This document shows positions 7,365 through 26,157 of a stretch of DNA of 32,000 nucleotides, piece by piece. A model generated the notes under the pieces. That model searched no databases. It saw nothing but the letters and a program-made list of their open reading frames with translations, and had not been told where the DNA came from. The translations under genes and the position numbers were made by a program. This DNA is from Nostoc punctiforme PCC 73102. GTDB lineage: Bacteria; Cyanobacteriota; Cyanobacteriia; Cyanobacteriales; Nostocaceae. Where the stretch lies: positions 3,630,001-3,662,000 of the forward strand of contig NC_010628.1 of NCBI RefSeq assembly GCF_000020025.1, read 5' to 3'. Position 1 is the first letter of the stretch. Every line of letters starts with the position of its first letter.

Positions 7365-7404
7365 GGAGCGCAGAGGAGCAGGGGAGCAGGGGAGCAGGGG
7401 AGCA
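7363..7404. repeat. Tandem octamer tract GAGGAGCG-ca-GAGGAGCA-(GGGGAGCA)x3 overlapping the stop codon of the first FHA gene
   Basis: Read directly from 7363-7404. Confidence 0.85.
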
Positions 7405-7430: not shown

Positions 7431-7479
7431 AATGACAAATGACCAATGACAAATGACAAATGACCAATGACTAATGACT
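7431..7479. repeat. STRR-type tandem heptamer (AATGACN)x7 containing the start codon of the second FHA gene
   Basis: aatgaca aatgacc aatgaca aatgaca aatgacc aatgact aatgact. The unit is the complement of the TTGGTCA-type cyanobacterial STRR heptamer. Confidence 0.9.
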
Positions 7480-14181: not shown

Positions 14182-14601
14182 ATGTCTGCTAAAGATGTCT
14201 TTCATCAAGTTGTCAAAATAGCTTTAGAGAAAGACGGTTGGCAAATTACTAACGACCCACTCACAATTAGCGTGGGTGGAGTTAATCTTTCTATTGATTT
14301 AGGCGCAGAAAAGCTGATCGCAGCAGAACGTGAAGGAGAAAAAATTGCAGTCGAAGTCAAAAGTTTTTTAGAGAGGTCGTCTGCTATTTCAGAATTTCAT
14401 ACAGCATTGGGACAGTTTATTAATTATAGAGGTGCATTACGACGGCGACAACCGGAGCGTGTTTTGTATTTAGCAGTACCTTTAACAACTTACAAAACAT
14501 TTTTTCAACTTGATTTCCCTAAAGAGATGATAGCAGAAAATCAAGTAAAAATGCTTATTTATGATGTAGAGCAAGAGGTGATTTTCCAATGGATAAATTA
14601 A
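14182..14601 (+). CDS. xisH: XisH family protein (fdxN-element excision controlling factor-like; endonuclease-like fold family)
   Basis: 139 aa. MSAKDVFHQVVKIALEKDGWQITNDPL...AAEREGEKIAVEVKSF...VIFQWIN matches the XisH family end to end. Confidence 0.85.
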   Translation: MSAKDVFHQVVKIALEKDGWQITNDPLTISVGGVNLSIDLGAEKLIAAEREGEKIAVEVKSFLERSSAISEFHTALGQFINYRGALRRRQPERVLYLAVPLTTYKTFFQLDFPKEMIAENQVKMLIYDVEQEVIFQWIN

Positions 14602-14924
14602 CTCGATATCGCCAGCTTGTACAACAGATATTACATGATTATAGTGAGCAAAAACCAGCTAACGGAAGCATAGAAGTTGAAACAATTTTTGATACAGAAC
14701 GTGACCATTATCAAATAGTTCATGTAGGGTGGGAAGGTCAAGACTGGGTACATAGTTGTATTATTCATATTGATATTAAAGGTGGGAAAATTTGGCTTCA
14801 GTGGAATGGTACAGAAGATGATATTGCAGCTAATTTGGTAGCTGCGGGAGTTCCCAAGGAAGACATTGTGTTAGGTTTTCAGTCTCCTTTTATGAGACAG
14901 TTTACAGAATATGCAGTGAGTTAG
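14589..14924 (+). CDS. xisI: XisI family protein
   Basis: 111 aa. YRQLVQQIL...ETIFDTERDHYQIVHVGW...HIDIKGGKIWLQWNGTEDDIA..LVAAGVPKEDIVLGF is the XisI family pattern. The start overlaps the xisH 3' end by 13 nt. Confidence 0.85.
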   Translation: MDKLTRYRQLVQQILHDYSEQKPANGSIEVETIFDTERDHYQIVHVGWEGQDWVHSCIIHIDIKGGKIWLQWNGTEDDIAANLVAAGVPKEDIVLGFQSPFMRQFTEYAVS

Positions 14925-15052
14925 GAGATGTTTTGAAAATTTCCAAGTACTACTTAATGAATGTTAACCCCAACTCCTGTATTAATATGATATTGATGGG
15001 GTAAACAATGTTAAATGAGGTTAATCAAATTATTAAGTAAGAAGTATTAATT

Positions 15053-15364
15053 ATGGATAATTGGCAAGATATTACTGATGATAGATTAGTAAGACCAATA
15101 CATCCTGGCGAAGTAATTGCAGATATTTTAGATGATTTAGATATTAATACCGCAAATTTTGCAGAAATTTTAGGAGTATCTAATCAAACAATTCAGGAAG
15201 TTATTAATGGTCAAAGGTCAATTACAGTAGATATAGCAATACGTCTTGGTAAAGCTTTAGGAAATGGGCCAAGACTTTGGCTTAATCTTCAGCAAAAAGT
15301 TGATCTTTGGTATGCTTTGCAAAGCCATAAAGAAGAATATGAGCAAGTAATGACATTGGTTTAG
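15053..15364 (+). CDS. HigA/VapI-like XRE-family HTH protein (antitoxin-type), no HigB partner
   Basis: 103 aa. IHPGEVIADILDDLDINTANFAEILGVSNQTIQEVINGQRSITVDIAIRLGKALGNGPRLWLNLQ is the HigA-type addiction-module antidote pattern. Only 128 non-coding nt lie upstream. Confidence 0.8.
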   Translation: MDNWQDITDDRLVRPIHPGEVIADILDDLDINTANFAEILGVSNQTIQEVINGQRSITVDIAIRLGKALGNGPRLWLNLQQKVDLWYALQSHKEEYEQVMTLV

Positions 15365-15496
15365 AATAAATTGTGATTATTTTTTGAATAATTGAAATTT
15401 ACAGAAATTTTCAGTTAGTAGAATAAAATTCAGTAAATATAAGTTTTTTATGTTATGTACTTAGTGTGCATCTAGCAAAGAGAGTAAAGACACTAA

Positions 15497-16057
15497 ATGA
15501 AAATTTTTACCTACGTTGACAATTCTAACCTTTTTATAGAAGGCCGACGGCTATCTGCTGTAAACAAGAGAATTGATGGAGTTGGTAATATCTATGAAGC
15601 AATCAATCTGAAAATATTTGATAACGATTGGTATATGGACTACGGTCGCTTGCATGAATTTTTATGCGGCACAGAAAAGTCAGAGATTGGTGGGACTAGA
15701 CTTTGGGGATCGCCTCCGCCCAAAGATACATTCTGGGATTACGTTAAAAGCAAAGGTTTTAATGTTCAAACCTACGAACGTTCAAAAGGTAAAGAGAAAA
15801 AAGTCGATACTGCGATTGCTTACCAAATTGGAAAAGATTCAGGCAAAATAATCGATAAAGAAAATGACATAATTGTTATTGCAGCAGGTGACAAAGATTA
15901 TATGCCTTGCATTGATGATTTGACGAGTGATGGCTTCAAAGTTCATGTTGCTTTTTGGGGACACGCTGCAAGAGAAGTGCAAGAGGCGGCTACAAAATTT
16001 ATTAATCTCGATCCTCATCAAGATTATTTGAGTGCAATTTGGTGTCGGCCACAATAG
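15497..16057 (+). CDS. NYN-domain (LabA/PIN-like) putative ribonuclease
   Basis: 186 aa. N-terminal MKIFTYVDNSNLFIEG (first acidic motif), KEKKVDTAIAYQIG and IIVIAAGDKDYMPCIDDL..GFKVHV match the conserved acidic-residue layout of NYN domains. Confidence 0.7.
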   Translation: MKIFTYVDNSNLFIEGRRLSAVNKRIDGVGNIYEAINLKIFDNDWYMDYGRLHEFLCGTEKSEIGGTRLWGSPPPKDTFWDYVKSKGFNVQTYERSKGKEKKVDTAIAYQIGKDSGKIIDKENDIIVIAAGDKDYMPCIDDLTSDGFKVHVAFWGHAAREVQEAATKFINLDPHQDYLSAIWCRPQ

Positions 16058-16076
16058 AGACAGCAGCCAATAAGTA

Positions 16077-16298
16077 TCGCTTTATTTTTGAGGATTTCTG
16101 CAAGGCGATCGCACTCCCTCTTTCACAACTGCCCATCGCTTAGTTTTTGAGGTTTTCTGTAAAGCGATCGCTCACTCTTCTACAACAAACAATTGCCTTA
16201 TTTTTGAGGTTTTCTGCAAGGCGATCGCGCTTACTCTTTCACAATAAGCGATCGCATTATTTTTGAGGTTTTCTGTAAGGCGATCGCTCTTTACAATG
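16077..16298. repeat. Four tandem copies of a 57-59 bp HIP1-containing repeat
   Basis: The core TTTTTGAGG starts at 16085, 16144, 16201 and 16260. Unit layout is ..CGC(T/A)TTA-TTTTTGAGGTTTTCTG(C/T)AA(G/A)-GCGATCGC-..CTCTTTCACAA... A fifth solitary core sits at 17202-17210. Confidence 0.9.
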
Positions 16299-16361
16299 TC
16301 ACTCACCAACGGCTTACGTACACTAATCTGAAGTGTAAGGTAGCTGACAAATGCAATAAAT

Positions 16362-16790
16362 CTACTCTGAGGCTACCGATTTAGGGCTGATCTCAAACTG
16401 TAAATGGGAACGGTAGAAACAAACATCAAACTCCATAAAGAAGTTAACTTGCCCCAAAATCAGAGGTACGTTTGTAGCTTTTGTCCATGCAAATACAAGT
16501 TGTACAGGTTCAAATTGCCCAACTACTGCTTGAAGAACCGCGACACGCGCTTCGTATTGAGCTAAATTACCTGTCAAACTCAATGCAGTTGTCTGCTGTT
16601 CCCACACGTACCCAAGCTCAACTCCTACTGAATAAGAAAGCACATTCACGCTTGCTCCAGTATCCAACAGACCGGATGTCATCACAGAACTTTGCTGGTA
16701 GATCAAAGTAAGGGGTAGATAGGGGCGGAAACTGGCTTCGCCCAATGCAACATCAATCGGGATAAAGGAATACCGTTGTGCGTTACGCAT
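16362..16790 (-). CDS. Retropepsin-like (clan AA) aspartic protease family protein
   Basis: 142 aa with the active-site-type motif LLDTGASVNVL, followed by LILGQVNFFMEFDVCF, typical of bacterial single-domain retropepsin-like proteins. Confidence 0.75.
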   Translation of the reverse strand: MRNAQRYSFIPIDVALGEASFRPYLPLTLIYQQSSVMTSGLLDTGASVNVLSYSVGVELGYVWEQQTTALSLTGNLAQYEARVAVLQAVVGQFEPVQLVFAWTKATNVPLILGQVNFFMEFDVCFYRSHLQFEISPKSVASE

Positions 16791-16998
16791 GGTCTTGAGT
16801 TTTAGCAGCTTGTAGCACTTTTAACATAGTATCTGCTGCTTCAACTGCATCATAAGGCGACCACACATGATAGAACTGATCGGGTTTAATCAGATCGGTT
16901 TCCTGTTGGGCTAACTCTGAGATTAAAACCTGCATAATATAAAACTTATCTGCTCGACTAAGTTCTCGCAAAGTGGAGATTAATTCTGCTGAAACCAT
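16783..16998 (-). CDS. Small protein (71 aa) translationally coupled to the retropepsin-like gene
   Basis: ATG at 16998 (the track ORF uses a GTG at 17007). Its TAA (16783-16785) overlaps the downstream ATG (16788-16790) in the sequence ATGCGTAA. No known motif. Confidence 0.55.
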   Translation of the reverse strand: MVSAELISTLRELSRADKFYIMQVLISELAQQETDLIKPDQFYHVWSPYDAVEAADTMLKVLQAAKTQDHA

Positions 16999-17069
16999 GC
17001 AAAGCACTCTAGTAAATCAAGTCTGCTTCTCGATCATAGTTTATTCTTTGGGTATCACTGGGTTTACCA

Positions 17070-17198
17070 CAAGCTACAACTAGAGTAATCACGTCTGCGA
17101 CTTACAGGTGAGACAATTTAAGCAGCTAATAATGCGATCAATCGCACGCTCTTCCACAACAGGCGATGTCTAACGACAAGCCGCTACGCATCTACGCA
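17070..17198. repeat. Dispersed repeat copy A (paired with 18225-18368)
   Basis: Shared blocks with copy A': caagctacaactaga, gtgagacaatt, aagcag, taataatgcg, cttcca.aacaggcgat.tctaacgacaagccgctac, tctacgc. Confidence 0.8.
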
Positions 17199-17228
17199 TT
17201 GTTTTTGAGGTTTTCTACAAAGCAACTA

Positions 17229-17585
17229 CATTTGCTATTTCGGCGACTACATTTGCTATTTCGGCGGCAGCATTTGCTATTTTGGTGATCGCATTTGCTA
17301 TTTTGGTGATCGCATTTGCTATTTTGGTGATCGCATTTGCTATTTCGGCGACAGCATTTGCTATTTCGGCGATCGCATTTGCTATTTCGGCGACAGCATT
17401 TGCTATTTCGGCGACAGCATTTGCTATTTCGGCGACAGCATTTGCTATTTCGGCGACAGCATTTGCTATTTTGGCGACAGCATTTGCTATTTTGGCGACA
17501 GCATTTGCTATTTCGACGACAGCATTTGCTATTTCGGCGACAGCATTTGCTATTTCGGCGACAGAATTTGCTATTTTGGCGATCG
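17229..17585. repeat. Tandem array, 17 x 21 bp, consensus CATTTGCTATTTCGGCGACAG
   Basis: 357 bp is exactly 17 units in perfect register. ATTTGCTATTT is invariant in every unit, and variation is confined to the 3' half. One degenerate unit (ttttctacaaagcaacta) precedes it. Confidence 0.97.
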
Positions 17586-17761
17586 GTGTTATATAAATGA
17601 TTGAGTTCGTCCCGAAACAACAGGCAAATACAGCTAGATGGATTAGTAAAAATACAGAGTAACTCTCAATATTAACTCTTAATTAAATCCACAAAATTAC
17701 TCATCTCACGTAGAAAGGCATTCCGCTATGTTGAAATAGAACTATTCAAGAAATATTTCCC

Positions 17762-18187
17762 ATGTCTTTAAAAACTCGCGGTTCTGCTGCTGTAGATAAA
17801 GCTCAACGCCGTCTTGCACTGCTTAAATCCATTAATGAGAACCTGGATTTAGGGCACGGATTAACAATTGAAGCTTATACCCGCTTCCTTGATAATACCC
17901 GTGCCACCCTAGAAGCCCATAATACCCTTCTGTCTAATCTTGAGGAATCTCGTAAGACGATGAATCAGATGGACAGAGGACTCTCGGAACTATCTGAGAG
18001 GATGCTTAGTGCTGTTGCAACTGTCTACGGCAAAAACAGCATGGAGTATTCAAAAGCAGGTGGCTCTAGCCGAAAGCGGAGTACGAGTAAAAAATCTATT
18101 TCACAAGTTCCTATAGTTGTAACGGTTCCCGTCACTCAACCCACCCAAACTGTAACGAACGGTAAAGGCAGCTTGAGCAATTTCTAA
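17762..18187 (+). CDS. Hypothetical protein (141 aa), helical N-terminal part and Ser/Thr/Lys-rich tail
   Basis: ATG-initiated ORF with no competing frames. No recognisable domain. Lies between repeat copies A and A'. Confidence 0.5.
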   Translation: MSLKTRGSAAVDKAQRRLALLKSINENLDLGHGLTIEAYTRFLDNTRATLEAHNTLLSNLEESRKTMNQMDRGLSELSERMLSAVATVYGKNSMEYSKAGGSSRKRSTSKKSISQVPIVVTVPVTQPTQTVTNGKGSLSNF

Positions 18188-18224
18188 CCACAACCTGCTA
18201 CGCGTCTACGTCTTGTTTTTGCCC

Positions 18225-18368
18225 CAAGCTACAACTAGAATAGCCTCTGTGATTTATACGTGAGACAATTCAAGCAGTTAATAATGCGTAGGCATAGCCC
18301 GTCGTAGACATCGCGCTCACTCTTCCATAACAGGCGATTTCTAACGACAAGCCGCTACATGTCTACGC
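18225..18368. repeat. Dispersed repeat copy A' carrying a nested 29-bp small-repeat insertion (18286-18314)
   Basis: Aligns block by block with 17070-17198. It has an extra segment gcgtaggcatagcccgtcgtagacatcgc where copy A has gcgatcaatcgc. Confidence 0.8.
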
Positions 18369-18414
18369 TTACAATGCCATCATCAAATCAGCGATCGCAA
18401 CATACAAAAAAGAC

Positions 18415-18606
18415 TCAAACTATGAGTGTATCGAACACTAACACTGTTAATGCTGGTAAAGACGGCAACCGCGCATCATTTGTCAAGAAAAATGATGCAC
18501 CTGCACGAATAGCAGTAGCTTTTCTGTTTAGCATCTGGGGTTCTTAAATTATAATCTGCCCTTAATTGTGCCGCATTTTCAGCGATGTCGGGAAAAACTT
18601 CGATAG
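18415..18606 (-). pseudogene. vapC: PIN-domain toxin VapC, 3' fragment (separated from the 5' fragment by the IS; also frameshifted near 18520-18523)
   Basis: The minus strand reads AIEVFPDIAENAAQLRADYNLRTPDAKQK. After a 1-nt shift it reads ATAIRAGASFFLTNDARLPSLPALTVLVFDTLIV-stop (TGA at 18415-18417), a typical PIN C-terminus. Confidence 0.75.
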
Positions 18607-19788
18607 CAAAAGTGTTGAATGTTAAGAAAAATCCGATAAAAACAGCCCAAAATATGTTAAATTTTGGGCGGAAGATTAAAGTATATCTATTTAATAGTGA
18701 TTATAAATTCATTTCCCAAGATTGTCAAAGATATCTTGAGAGGACTGCCAAAAAACGATTATCCAGTATTGAACAGTCGTCTGTTCTTTGAGTGCTGGTT
18801 ATCTTATGCTATGGATAACAGCTTAACAAGTATGCGAGATTTATTTAACAGATTAAACAACACAGGATTTCCGGTAGATATTTCTACTTTCTCTAAAGCA
18901 AACTTACATCGAAGTCAAAAACCTTTTCAAGAAATTTACCAAAAATTAAATGAATTAGTACAGAAGAAAGTTCAAAAAAAGTTACATGATAAATATGCAA
19001 TTTGTCCAATAGATTCAACAATTATTACTCTCACAAGTAAATTGTTATGGGTACTAGGACACCATCAAGTAAAACTTTTCAGTTCTCTAAATTTAGCTAC
19101 TGGAAGTCCATCAGATAACTTCATAAACTTTGGACATGACCATGACTATAAATTTGGTTGTAAAATGATGTCTAGTCTACCAAATAATGCTGTTGGTGTA
19201 ATGGATAGAGGTTTTGCTGGATTAAAATTTATCCAAGAATTAGTCCAAGAAAACAAATACTTTGTTTTGCGGGTAAAAAACAATTGGAAGTTAGAATTTG
19301 AGGAGCAAACTGGATTAATTAAAGTTGGTGCATCTAATGATGCTCAAGCCTATAGAGTGATTAATTTTTGTGATTTAGAAACGAAAACTGAGTTTCGATT
19401 AGTAACCAATTTACCAACATTAGGAGAGGCTGCCGTTAGTGATTATGAAATCAGGGATATTTATCGATTGCGTTGGGGAGTTGAATTGTTGTGGAAGTTT
19501 TTGAAAATGCACTTAAAACTTGACAAGTTAATTACTAAAAATGTTAATGGTATCACCATACAAATTTACGTTACTTTAATAGCTTATCTAATTTTACAGA
19601 TATTATCTGTACCACAACAATGGGGACATACGCTATTAGATAAATTCCGCTATTTACAATCTTGTATGTGTCAGAAAATAAGTTATGTTCATTGGTTTGA
19701 AGAGATGATGTCATGTTGACTATTTTAGGCTTTTTAGAGTTAGTGTAACTAGATATGTAAACTTTTGTATCAGCATTCAACATTTCTG
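18607..19788 (+). mobile_element. IS4-family insertion sequence (about 1.18 kb) inserted in vapC
   Basis: Terminal inverted repeats CAAAAGTGTTGAATG (left) and CAGAAATGTTGAATG (right, reverse complement) match at 13 of 15 positions. Direct target duplication cttcgatag(c) at 18598-18606(7) and 19789-19797(8). Single DDE transposase ORF. Confidence 0.85.
18697..19719 (+). CDS. IS4-family DDE transposase
   Basis: DSTIITL and VMDRGFAG (D, D). YRLRWGVELLWKFLK fits the IS4 Y-(2)-R-(3)-E-(6)-K signature exactly. The track ORF starts at a TTG at 18664. An in-frame GTG at 18697 gives (M)IINSFPKIV, so the start is uncertain. Confidence 0.85.
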   Translation: MIINSFPKIVKDILRGLPKNDYPVLNSRLFFECWLSYAMDNSLTSMRDLFNRLNNTGFPVDISTFSKANLHRSQKPFQEIYQKLNELVQKKVQKKLHDKYAICPIDSTIITLTSKLLWVLGHHQVKLFSSLNLATGSPSDNFINFGHDHDYKFGCKMMSSLPNNAVGVMDRGFAGLKFIQELVQENKYFVLRVKNNWKLEFEEQTGLIKVGASNDAQAYRVINFCDLETKTEFRLVTNLPTLGEAAVSDYEIRDIYRLRWGVELLWKFLKMHLKLDKLITKNVNGITIQIYVTLIAYLILQILSVPQQWGHTLLDKFRYLQSCMCQKISYVHWFEEMMSC

Positions 19789-20050
19789 CTTCGATAGCTG
19801 TTAAACCTTGGGAATTAAATAGAATTTCACGATATTGTTGAGCTAACGCTGTGTTTCCTTGTCGCAAGGGATAGACTAAAACTTCCGTGATAGTCAAAAC
19901 TGATGTTATGACACCAAACTCACTACGAAACATCGCTTCAAAAAAAGCATCTGTAACATCTAAATAATTAGGATTTTCTTCAATAAAGTAAATCAGTGGA
20001 GCAGTATCCAAACCGATAATTTGCCCCTGTAGCTGGACTAGCCATTCCAT
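19789..20050 (-). pseudogene. vapC: PIN-domain toxin VapC, 5' fragment (87 codons) truncated by the IS
   Basis: MEWLVQLQGQIIGLDTAPLIYFIEENPNY... (first PIN acidic motif GLDT). Homology stops at ...GLTAIE, exactly at the target duplication. The rest of track ORF 19571..20050 is read-through into the IS end. Confidence 0.8.
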
Positions 20051-23859: not shown

Positions 23860-26157
23860 TCAACCTGCTAGCCGATACATAATCACTTTTCCTTTCCAGT
23901 TTTCTTCTACAAATACCAGATACTCGCCATTTGAACGACGGAATGCGCGGATACCATAAGGTATATCAATCCAGCCACTTTCGCTGCCAACTTCTGGGCC
24001 TGGTTTTAACTGTTGTACTTGCGTTCCCGTCTTGGCATTATAGACATATACTTCTGCGGTTTTGACTGTCACGGCAAATACCCGATCGCCCGCCACACTC
24101 ATGGCTGCTGTAGACACTTCGCGTTTGCCTGTGGTGTCGTAAGGAATCACAACTCGCCATTTGGGGGTACGATTTCCTTTACTCCAATTGTCAAAACGGG
24201 CAATTTCAGATCCAGCAACTCCAGTATCGTCACCGAAGGCCGGATGATCTACTGTAAAGCCTGACAAATACATACTATCTGTTTCAGGGAAATATTCGAT
24301 CCGCCGCAAGTCGTTAAATATGCTGGGAGTAGTTTGCTTTTCCATCGAAGTATAGTTGTAGATGGGGTTGCCTTTAGCATCTATTCCCTGTAAAGGATAG
24401 TGGCGAATGCCATCTTCTGTTCGCAAAGCTTTCCAAACATCTCCTTTGCTGTCTACCCACCATCCACCGATATAAGGATAATCTTTGCTGGTATCATATT
24501 CGCTATTTTCAAATTTGCCATTACCGTTGCGATCGCGCCAGATCCATTCGCCTTTTTGTGGTTGATTCGGCGGCCAATTTCCGGCGAGAAATGGTTTGTC
24601 TGCGCCATTACTACCGACAAACATTCCGGCTGGGATGGCAACTTTACCATCTTTGTCTGGATTAAAACGATATATTTGCAGGAAGCTGTTGTACATATCT
24701 GTGAGGAACAAGAACGGCTTCCCTTGGATGCGGCGCACAAAGGTTCCATCGGGTGATGTATGTAGACGGGGATCTTGAGGATATTTGAAAGGATTTAAGG
24801 TGTAAGCTTTGTAAGTCCATTGCTTACCAGCAGGCTTACTGTAATCCATGAGATAGTGTTCTTGTTTGGTGAATAAATCTACCCCATCAGTTTTAGGATC
24901 GGCATCTGCATTATCGACGAATATCAATCCTAGCGATCGCCATATTAGTTTTCCCGATGGCGAAAATTTCCGTAAATCTGTTCCCGATTTGTTGAAACCA
25001 TTACTATTTATATAGATATTACCTGAAGCATCTGCACCTACTCCGGTAAGTCCATAAAGCTTTAAATCTCCAACTTCGCCAGCAATTCCTGTATAAATAC
25101 CACCCTTAGAGCCAAAACTACCCGTCTGCTTTGGCTGATCTTTGATGTCATAAATCAATATTTGCTGACGCGGGCCATTTTCTGCTACTAACAGCTTACC
25201 TTGACGATCAATTGCGATCGCAGTTGGTTCAACGATATCTGCAATTTGTTCGGGCAATTGCTTTCCACTCTGGGAATAATGTAAAATTTTGGCGGGTTTA
25301 CTACCATTTTTGCTTTGAATAATCCACAGATTTTTTTGTGGATCAACAGTTATTGCTCCTGGATTGGCAAAGGTAAAACTGCGTAATTGCTTTATCGTAT
25401 CAGTATCATAGACACGAATGCGGTTAGCAGCAAAATCACTCACATACAACTCGCTTCCTACTGTTGCTAATCCAGTAACTTCACTTTTAGTACTGGTAAT
25501 TAACATACTTTTATCCCAGCCACGTCCTTCAGGAAACGGTGCAGGTTTTCCCGACAAATCATAGCGTCTAACGCAATGCCAACTTGTACCTTCTGCTGGG
25601 TAATCTTCATCAGTTTTACCCTTCGATCCCTGAGTCATGGCAAGGTAAATATATTTACTATTTGCTGTTACAGCAATGCCACCTCCACGACTCCAGCCGT
25701 GAGTGTCGCCAATAGCACCAATAACTTTACCATCTTTATATATGGCTGCCTCCATTCCCGCCTCATCCCAATGGCTGTTGGTATAAACTGTGCCATCAGT
25801 AGAAACATACATTGCTTCAATATTGTTTTGTACCCGTAGATTTCCACTGCCAATAGTGTTACCTATCCACGATGTTTTGTAAGTAAGCGTGGGTGTTTCA
25901 GTACGATTTTGTACCAGTAGATTTGTACTGTCAATAGAATTACTTGTCCACGATGTTTTGTATGTAAGCGTGGGTGTTTCCGTTGTTGCCCAGTCTGTTG
26001 TAATTCCAAGGGTAGTAACAATGAGTCCAACAGTCAAACTGAGTAAAAAGTTGAAGGTTTTACTTCTTTGTAAATATCTAAGTTTAGATAATTTTTTGAT
26101 TTGCTGATTAAGCTTGTGACGGAGTTTTTCTAACTCCGCCATTAATTTATTTATCAT
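23860..26157 (-). CDS. Membrane-anchored protein with NHL-like beta-propeller ectodomain
   Basis: N-terminal charged helix (LMAELEKLRHKLNQQIKKLSKL), then one TM segment (FNFLLSLTVGLIVTTLGITT), then repeated blade-like motifs (SELYVSDFAANRIRVYD, GKLLVAENGPRQQILIYD, GNIYINSNGFN). Confidence 0.6.
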   Translation of the reverse strand: MINKLMAELEKLRHKLNQQIKKLSKLRYLQRSKTFNFLLSLTVGLIVTTLGITTDWATTETPTLTYKTSWTSNSIDSTNLLVQNRTETPTLTYKTSWIGNTIGSGNLRVQNNIEAMYVSTDGTVYTNSHWDEAGMEAAIYKDGKVIGAIGDTHGWSRGGGIAVTANSKYIYLAMTQGSKGKTDEDYPAEGTSWHCVRRYDLSGKPAPFPEGRGWDKSMLITSTKSEVTGLATVGSELYVSDFAANRIRVYDTDTIKQLRSFTFANPGAITVDPQKNLWIIQSKNGSKPAKILHYSQSGKQLPEQIADIVEPTAIAIDRQGKLLVAENGPRQQILIYDIKDQPKQTGSFGSKGGIYTGIAGEVGDLKLYGLTGVGADASGNIYINSNGFNKSGTDLRKFSPSGKLIWRSLGLIFVDNADADPKTDGVDLFTKQEHYLMDYSKPAGKQWTYKAYTLNPFKYPQDPRLHTSPDGTFVRRIQGKPFLFLTDMYNSFLQIYRFNPDKDGKVAIPAGMFVGSNGADKPFLAGNWPPNQPQKGEWIWRDRNGNGKFENSEYDTSKDYPYIGGWWVDSKGDVWKALRTEDGIRHYPLQGIDAKGNPIYNYTSMEKQTTPSIFNDLRRIEYFPETDSMYLSGFTVDHPAFGDDTGVAGSEIARFDNWSKGNRTPKWRVVIPYDTTGKREVSTAAMSVAGDRVFAVTVKTAEVYVYNAKTGTQVQQLKPGPEVGSESGWIDIPYGIRAFRRSNGEYLVFVEENWKGKVIMYRLAG
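25867..25980. repeat. Intragenic 81-bp tandem duplication (27-aa repeat TETPTLTYKTSW..N.I.S.NL.VQN)
   Basis: ccacgatgttttgta(a/t)gtaagcgtgggtgtttc occurs at 25867-25899 and 25948-25980. The protein repeat is visible in the translation just after the TM segment. Confidence 0.85.

Follow-up and report, generated by a model that had tools for sequence, protein, structure and literature searches.

What is a strictly phased array of 21-bp repeats doing just upstream of a small, uncharacterized gene? The window that we analyzed (32,000 nucleotides from Nostoc punctiforme PCC 73102; NC_010628.1, positions 3,630,001 to 3,662,000) contains such an array, and it is followed on the same strand by an open reading frame (ORF) of 141 codons, which we call ORF141. 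A preliminary description, made from the letters alone, offered three explanations for the array: a protein-binding scaffold for the product of a neighboring gene, a runaway amplification of a dispersed repeat module, or an unconventional or decayed coding repeat. By comparing homologous loci, we found that the array is a conserved, oriented, non-coding partner of ORF141, and that its 21-bp period outlasts its sequence.

The array has 17 head-to-tail units of 21 bp (357 bp) in perfect register and without a single indel. Tandem Repeats Finder (TRF) reports a period of 21, 16.9 copies, 93% matches, 0% indels, and a score of 554. The 11 nucleotides at unit positions 2–12 (ATTTGCTATTT) are the same in 17/17 units. 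Allowing up to one mismatch, this core occurs 19 times in the window as compared to 2.7 expected; none of the shuffles had as many. The variable positions are 13, 15, 16, 18, 19, 20, and 21, along with position 1 in unit 17 only, and units 3–5, 8–11, and 12–13 form runs of identical sequence. On all of these points (the unit count, the constant core, the confinement of variation to the 3' half except for the first base of unit 17, and the runs) the preliminary description was accurate. It also placed a degenerate unit before the array, but that segment matches the consensus at just 6/21 positions, and only its last 7 nt (GCAACTA) resemble the end of a unit. The constancy of half of the unit is partly a property of this locus: in homologous arrays elsewhere, the core drifts (for example, CATTTGCTTGTTGAG and CAATTGCCATTTCGG), while the 21-bp period is kept. 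The unit is not itself built of three copies of one heptamer. Some of the variants change CAG to TCG, which creates octamers that match or nearly match the cyanobacterial repeat HIP1 (PMC4390886, PMC5861425) at the unit junctions (GCGATCGC, GTGATCGC); this is a DNA-level rather than a codon-level pattern. The T-rich strand of the array is the sense strand of ORF141.

For the linkage test, we fetched homologous loci with the ORF141 protein alone, not with the array, and we counted arrays with periods of 21, 42, 63, or 84. All seven genomes obtained in this way (N. sphaeroides, Nostoc DSM 114161, Fischerella PCC 9605, Calothrix NIES-2098, Fortiea contorta, Nostoc HK-01, and Tolypothrix PCC 7910) contain an array with a 21-bp period that ends about 120–185 bp upstream of the gene, and the neighboring genes are all different. 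Protein alignment identified 45 loci in metagenomes, of which 44 had usable upstream DNA, and 40/44 have an array within 600 bp upstream. Of the four exceptions, two are short of upstream sequence (only about 230 nt), and in the other two the array lies 625 bp upstream. When the loci are pooled, an array lies within 650 bp upstream of the gene in 48/50 cases; the remaining DNA of these loci, 125.6 kb in total, contains one such array. The orientation is also fixed. The array and the gene have the same orientation in 45 cases and opposite orientations in none (four arrays were too diverged to score), and the distance from the array to the ATG is mostly 141–198 bp. Starting from the array instead of the protein, eight sources (including the window) have an ORF141 homolog 146–313 bp to the right of the array and on the same strand. 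In the metagenome loci L173 and L174, whose ORF141 homologs are 55% identical, something seems to have been inserted between array and gene, given that the distance is 625 bp rather than ~170 bp.

The arrays that are linked to ORF141 span the Nostocales and one plasmid from the Leptolyngbyales. This plasmid, from Kovacikia minuta, encodes a 43%-identical homolog of ORF141, and an array of 10.2 units of 21 bp ends 149 bp upstream of it. The Kovacikia unit (CGGAAACGATTGCGGAGGGAT) is unrelated to the Nostoc unit: it is G/A-rich and has no T-tracts. The association of array and gene is nearly 100%, and the 21-bp period persists through complete turnover of the unit sequence. A set of 36 linked arrays keeps the motif CAwTTGyTATTTcGGcG, with positions 1, 2, 11, 12, and 15 at 97–100% and drift at the rest. 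In most arrays, T makes up 30–48% of the sense strand. Homologous arrays mostly have 8–18 copies. Logan contigs suggested additional variation in copy number (6 units), but we disregarded it, as it fits de Bruijn collapse of identical units.

The DNA between the array and ORF141 is conserved as well. Four blocks in this spacer (Table 1) are kept from Nostoc to Fischerella and Calothrix in an alignment of 15 genomes, and consensus sequences from the spacers of Nostoc to Fischerella include GAGTAAAAAyACAG, TAAATCCACAAAAyTACTCaTCTCA, and CTATnTTGAAA. We found no sign that the spacer acts as a structured RNA: RNAalifold predicted 0 conserved pairs across 15 homologous spacers, no terminator-like site or hairpin was found in the window's spacer, and there were no matches to known RNA families at E ≤ 1 within positions 15000–20000. 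By eye, the second block resembles the reverse complement of the repeat unit, but there is no covariation, so we set this aside. To the left of the array, the DNA is not conserved, and this includes the dispersed module that abuts the array in the window. The conserved module thus begins, on its left, with the array. This is a two-part module, in which a 21-bp array and an ORF141-family gene are joined by a conserved spacer of ~120–300 bp. We found no plasmid records with DNA-level similarity.

Table 1. Features of the array-ORF141 locus, in window coordinates.
Feature	Coordinates	Strand	Basis or remark
21-bp tandem array, 17 units, consensus CATTTGCTATTTCGGCGACAG	17229..17585	+	unit count, TRF, homologous arrays upstream of ORF141 homologs
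Spacer from array to ORF141 start, conserved, non-coding, 176 bp	17586..17761	+	15-genome alignment
Conserved spacer block CCCGAAACAAC	17611-17621	+	
Conserved spacer block GATTAGTAAAAATACAG	17641-17657	+	
Conserved spacer block TAAATCCACAAAATTACTCATCTCA	17684-17708	+	
Conserved spacer block CTATGTTGAAATAG	17726-17739	+	holds a candidate -10 element, TATGTT
ORF141, 141 amino acids	17762..18187	+	homolog alignment, AlphaFold model, family searches
Dispersed Nostoc repeat module (..CTCTTCCACAACAGGCGA..GCCGCTACGCATCTACGCATTGTTTTTGAGGTTTTCT..), left copy	17063..17228	+	abuts the array
Same dispersed module, right copy	18188..18378	+	directly after the ORF141 stop

What kind of protein is ORF141? 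It has 213 close homologs, and a profile search found 697 clusters (at 50% identity), nearly all of 100–180 amino acids, including members from the Synechococcales and from a metagenome-assembled genome of the Pyrinomonadaceae. An alignment of 40 sequences has 35 invariant columns in the highly conserved residues 1–107, which are followed by a basic C-terminal tail that varies. AlphaFold (AF2) predicts a helix at residues 9–24 and a 54-residue helix at 36–89 (predicted local distance difference test, pLDDT, above 90), followed by disorder. In other words, the modeled structure is a helical hairpin with a disordered basic tail. The family had no match in Pfam, NCBIfam, PADLOC, or PHROG, and no match to the ToxN, CptN, or TenpN families; there was no sequence match in PDB, and Foldseek found no structural neighbor in PDB or BFVD (the best E-value was 2.4–2.5). 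ORF141 homologs are found near PIN, HicAB, ParE, PemK, Uma2, XisHI, KAP, NACHT, and CHAT genes. No conserved protein partner emerged from the compared neighborhoods, and no ParA, ParM, or Rep genes were found in them.

To see how widespread the array is, we scanned for the pattern ATTTGCTATTTNGNNGNNNNNATTTGCTATTT, using one genome per species. This yielded at least 120 stretches (L001–L120), and among the matches listed, all are in heterocystous cyanobacteria and close relatives: the genera are Nostoc, Komarekiella, Tolypothrix, Aulosira, Dendronalium, Amazonocrinis, Spirirestis, Desmonostoc, Pelatocladus, and "Plectonema radiosum". Of these stretches, as many as 10 are in one genome (Komarekiella atlantica). 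The core matches form 129 arrays in 21-bp register, with one exception (a spacing of 44 bp); after extension, we analyzed 123 same-core arrays with about 1,240 units. The listed arrays are intergenic and occur in all four configurations of the flanking genes (23 convergent, 19 and 17 co-directional, and 15 divergent). The preliminary description held that identical arrays in many intergenic regions would point to a generic minisatellite, and such scattering is what we see. The locus is therefore not unique, but the copy in the window is of the gene-linked, deeply conserved kind.

Most of these arrays lack the gene. A hidden Markov model of the family identified an ORF141-type ORF in just 8/121 sources (L001–L120 and the window), which leaves about 110 of the listed arrays without one. 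At least seven of the gene-less arrays (L117, L015, L027, L075, L112, L074, and L105) retain parts of the ORF141 spacer or gene. Same-core arrays are found at many different orthologous sites that are common to Nostoc species. Our control was an orphan site at which six Nostoc genomes have an array 61–79 bp downstream of a gene of the Met_gamma_lyase family. The orthologous sites in Nostoc UHCC 0302, Calothrix NIES-2100, Calothrix 336/3, and Anabaena PCC 7108 have gaps of 56–144 bp and no repeat with a 21-bp period. This one test suggests that the orphan arrays are young and lineage-restricted and that the gene-linked array is old. Some arrays (L040, L005, L031, L110, and L015) are split by an insertion about as long as one unit, such as GATGCCTACGGCGGGCTTCGCCAACG in L015. 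These insertions lie at a HIP1-like junction, preserve the 21-bp register, and read A*A*PAVGIA or AKPAVGIA in the frame of the heptad peptide that is discussed next.

Could the array be translated? As the preliminary description had pointed out, four of the six reading frames are open across the entire array. These are ICYFGDS and AFAISAT on the plus strand and NSKCCRR and AEIANAV on the minus strand; a fifth frame, HLLFRRQ on the plus strand, is broken by TGA in units 3–5. If the array is a coding repeat, then the minus-strand heptad, (V/I)A(E/K)IANA, or the plus-strand AFAISAT would be translated from a non-canonical start, giving an alanine-rich coiled coil or a hydrophobic repeat protein. 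In favor of this, 21 bp is 7 codons. The heptad frame is open in 109/123 of the same-core arrays and in 37/45 of the ORF141-linked arrays (for AFAISAT, 114/123 and 40/45). Also, the variable position of the heptad is mostly Y/F/I/V and the fixed one is I/V, similar to the a and d positions of a coiled coil, and in Calothrix NIES-2098 only, a 133-aa ORF with an ATG start runs through the array. On the other hand, the AEIANAV frame has no ATG, GTG, or TTG start at the window locus, as had been described. Elsewhere, in-frame starts upstream of the arrays (23/36 for the minus frame and 21/36 for the plus frame) are roughly as common as expected by chance for ~15 open codons; their positions vary, and 13 arrays have none. 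The heptad frame contains in-frame stops in 8/45 linked arrays, the reading frame of the flanks relative to the array changes among genomes, and the ORF borders are not conserved. Across the same-core arrays, the third codon positions of the core (ATA, GCA, AAT, GAA) are nearly invariant in both the heptad frame and the AFAISAT frame. Reasoning from the unit sequence, these two frames that are still open are the ones with few codons that are one mutation away from a stop. Finally, a search of 5.8 billion proteins with the heptad peptide found 5 short hypothetical proteins, and its matches in Pfam are coiled-coil composition noise.

Given the peptide search, the in-frame stops, and the chance-level starts, we rejected coding in the AEIANAV frame. 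We also rejected the ICYFGDS frame, in which variation at positions 7, 10, 13, and 16 of the same-core arrays is synonymous, but position 4, also a third position, is invariant, and just 25/45 linked arrays are open. For AFAISAT, the starts are at chance level and the N. sphaeroides-type units contain stops, so this frame was rejected despite being open in most linked arrays. A lipoprotein-like leader upstream of the heptad frame, SVFLLIHLAVFACC, was set aside too: what is conserved there is the ORF141 spacer as DNA, and the leader's frame shifts relative to the array from genome to genome. Overall, a coding repeat, whether unconventional or decayed, seems highly improbable, and based on these comparisons the array is non-coding. 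Public annotations include "hypothetical proteins" of 80–143 aa on the arrays L125, L126, L127, L131, L133, and L137, on either strand and in differing frames. These are probably annotation artifacts, and annotators have a reason to drop the spurious ORFs of 80–140 aa that are called on these arrays.

If the array acts as DNA, then it might be a recognition platform for the ORF141 module: a phased, multi-site, cis-acting, and sequence-specific element that resembles iterons or centromeres. This is the reading that we favor, and we put its probability at roughly 40%. One site every two helical turns would place all of the sites on the same side of the double helix, an arrangement known from plasmid iterons and partition centromeres. 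A sequence-specific factor would bind the platform, and the most plausible candidate is the product of ORF141. Cooperative binding just upstream of the promoter region of ORF141 could then control the promoter. Replication slippage and unequal exchange would give rise to the runs of identical units and to the differences in copy number. The ~110 gene-less, same-core arrays would be secondary copies that spread recently in Nostoc and its relatives, and we speculate that they are extra binding or titration sites, or else inert remnants.

Plasmid iterons and partition centromeres adjoin the gene for the protein that binds them: the iterons of R6K and RK2 are next to Rep, parC is next to ParR, and sopC is next to SopB. 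The array resembles these elements in being made of direct repeats, with a period near two helical turns and about 8–18 copies, immediately beside a small gene. The phasing that is expected of such an element is seen in every array (a period of 21, or of 42, 63, or 84). Also, the sequence of the array drifts along with the gene, as might be expected of a cognate pair (but see below), and extra copies could titrate the binding protein. Unlike these elements, the ORF141 locus lies on the chromosome, lacks a Rep, ParA, ParM, or TubZ partner, and shows no features of an origin; the presence of many orphan arrays per genome is also unusual.

Several observations weigh against a DNA platform. Domain and fold searches did not recognize a DNA-binding fold in ORF141 (neither winged-helix, ribbon-helix-helix, nor helix-turn-helix), which sets it apart from the proteins that bind iterons and centromeres. 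For the scaffold that was proposed in the preliminary description, the link to ORF141 is strongly supported by the comparison of loci, and binding by its product is a prediction. A simple promoter scan of the spacer found no promoter. Because 21 bp is also 7 codons, helical phasing is not the only possible reason for a fixed period. The unit drifts as ORF141 diverges, yet ORF141 proteins that are 88% and 78% identical adjoin units that differ at many positions (CATTTGCTTGTTGAG.., CATTTGCGACTTTGG..), which argues against tight recognition of the whole unit. And part of the invariance of the core in the 120 scanned loci is an ascertainment effect, as the scan pattern required the core.

In the main rival reading, the RNA would matter instead. 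In type III toxin-antitoxin systems (toxIN, cptIN, tenpIN), a repeat array lies upstream of the toxin gene and is co-oriented with it (Blower et al. 2012, PMC3401426). By analogy, the array could be transcribed with or next to ORF141, and the RNA of 21-nt units, (CAUUUGCUAUUUCGGCGACAG)n, would bind and neutralize ORF141 or be processed by it, with the orphan arrays supplying antitoxin-like RNA. Much of the locus fits: direct repeats lie immediately upstream of a solo small gene and are strictly co-oriented with it (the 48/50 and 45:0 reported above), the gene has no conserved protein partner, it sits among toxin-antitoxin and defense genes in a place that differs by genome, and the unit drifts with the protein, up to its replacement in Kovacikia, as expected of a cognate pair. 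However, four published criteria or typical values do not fit. In type III loci, a short palindromic terminator separates the repeats from the toxin gene, and the repeats are 31–62 nt long and present in 1.9–5.6 copies (Table 2 of PMC3401426), whereas here we found neither a terminator-like hairpin nor any conserved RNA structure between array and gene, and the units are 21 nt long, mostly in 8–18 copies. As for the toxin family, ORF141 is predicted to be all-helical and is not an endoribonuclease of the ToxN, CptN, or TenpN type. The spacer is a stretch of 120–300 bp with conserved blocks, versus 1–50 bp in most type III loci; there is no conserved promoter or flank upstream of the array; and units within one array differ. 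When the array is folded as RNA, the pairing between units has z = -4.6 for four identical units but just z = -1.8 for the real, variable units, values that we regard as uninformative. We consider a type III-like system to be unlikely. Another explanation does not involve any protein: with two ATTT blocks per 21 bp, the phased T-tracts are predicted to make the DNA upstream of the ORF141 promoter intrinsically bent or easy to wrap, and the copy number could act as a rheostat. The array's position upstream of conserved promoter-proximal blocks, its period of two helical turns, the conserved T-rich bias of the sense strand, and copy numbers that vary from 8 to 18 are all consistent with this. 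But the array in Kovacikia keeps its period and position without T-tracts, the positions that are conserved across genomes include the non-tract bases C1, A2, and G15, and orphan arrays at the 3' ends of genes would be left unexplained, so bent DNA by itself is a rather improbable account.

It is also conceivable that the array has no function at all. Heterocystous cyanobacteria contain short (STRR, 7-bp) and long (LTRR, 37-bp) tandemly repeated repetitive sequences, reportedly described by Mazel in 1990 and by Masepohl in 1996. A selfish or neutral minisatellite akin to these could hitch-hike with a mobile ORF141 cassette and seed the orphans. Like STRR and LTRR, the array consists of short tandem units in the intergenic DNA of Nostocales (at least 120 stretches from 10 or more genera, all intergenic). 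The number of stretches in a single genome (up to 10), their presence in every orientation with a slight convergent excess (23 versus 15 divergent), the small insertions that interrupt some arrays (A*A*PAVGIA in the heptad frame), the adjacency of arrays to HIP1 and other dispersed modules, and the lineage-restricted nature of the single orphan site that was tested all suit a minisatellite. In contrast, the position and orientation beside ORF141 have been retained across Nostocales and Kovacikia while the neighbors and the unit sequence changed, lineages whose ORF141 proteins are down to 60–70% identity still share the unit motif, and off-register units are almost absent (one 44-bp spacing among the 129 listed arrays). 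Retained position, a conserved motif, and strict register are not predicted by neutral hitch-hiking, which makes this explanation doubtful. The 21-bp unit also differs in length and sequence from STRR and LTRR, and one class of its copies is obligately tied to a conserved gene. We know of no tie between STRR, LTRR, HIP1, or small dispersed repeats (SDR) and a specific gene. The SDR of Nostoc, which Elhai and colleagues are said to have described in 2008, reportedly insert into tandem repeats and into HIP1. Many homologous arrays do have GCGATCGC at every unit junction, and some contain SDR-like insertions of ~21 nt. But HIP1 and SDR are single short modules, and they explain some of the variation within arrays, not the 21-bp tandem arrays themselves. 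The idea of a runaway amplification of the TTTTCTG..GCGATCGC module, from the preliminary description, is right only in part: the array abuts such dispersed modules and the ancestral unit ends in HIP1, but the array is an old conserved element rather than a local accident.

Judged from its sequence, then, the locus resembles repeat-plus-gene modules of the iteron-like or the type III-like kind. The array and the ORF141-family protein might be an undescribed cognate module, in which the repeat, as DNA or as RNA, is the ligand of a new small helical protein; the module would move among toxin-antitoxin and defense islands, and the gene-less arrays would be secondary or sponge sites. Such a pair would represent a new class of RNA-repeat antitoxin system or, alternatively, a chromosomal network of the iteron-like kind; we offer this tentatively, at odds a little short of even. 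We did not find a paper that mentions the unit or the peptide strings in the literature searched. Heterocystous cyanobacteria are rich in tandem and dispersed repeats, of which STRR were described around 1990, and one repeat family is now tied to a highly conserved, uncharacterized gene. This raises the question of whether ORF141 binds the array as DNA or RNA, and whether the two form a regulatory, addiction, or defense pair. If there is a cognate repeat-protein system, then the orphan arrays would amount to tandem binding or sponge sites spread across a whole genome, of which bacteria offer few examples.

In the window, the array and ORF141 are bracketed by the two copies of the dispersed module, which are direct repeats (Table 1). 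Relative to the left copy, the right copy has an insertion of ~24 nt (TAGGCATAGCCCGTCGTAGACATC) at about 18289–18312, after AATAATGCG; this is reminiscent of the SDR insertions reported in the 2008 work of Elhai et al. Further to the left, at 16076–16287, there is a 59-bp tandem repeat (3.6 copies, 80% matches) that is built of TTTTTGAGGTTTTCTGCAAGGCGATCGC and CTCTTTCACAAC modules. These modules abut 21-bp arrays at many loci.

Immediately to the left of the array, on the minus strand (16362–17007), is a pair of genes that encode proteins of 74 aa and 142 aa (the latter is Asp_protease_2-like). This pair matches proteins A and B of PDC-M52, a candidate defense system in PADLOC (E = 2.5e-53 for B). 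Downstream of ORF141, an IS4-family element (18608–19788, with a DDE_Tnp_1 transposase ORF at 18664–19719) lies inside a PIN-domain gene. The Logan contig L121, which is 99.1–99.8% identical over the aligned segments, lacks this insertion and encodes an intact 127-aa PIN protein and a 38-aa partner. Pairs of the XisH/XisI type recur a few hundred bp to ~2.3 kb from 21-bp arrays (14182–14924 in the window, 3200–3939 in L137, and also in L117, L006, and L015), which may simply reflect a shared toxin-antitoxin-island context.

The window also contains other tandem repeats. Short STRR-like arrays with units of 7–8 bp, of a type that is typical of heterocystous cyanobacteria, are found at 7431–7478, 1487–1519, 209–242, and 7370–7404; the units are (AATGACA)n, at 7431–7478, along with (TAATTCG)n, (TTAGGAG)n, and (GCAGGGGA)n. 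Finally, an 81-bp tandem duplication (25826–25980; 1.9 copies, 87% matches) lies within a minus-strand ORF of 765 aa (23860–26157).

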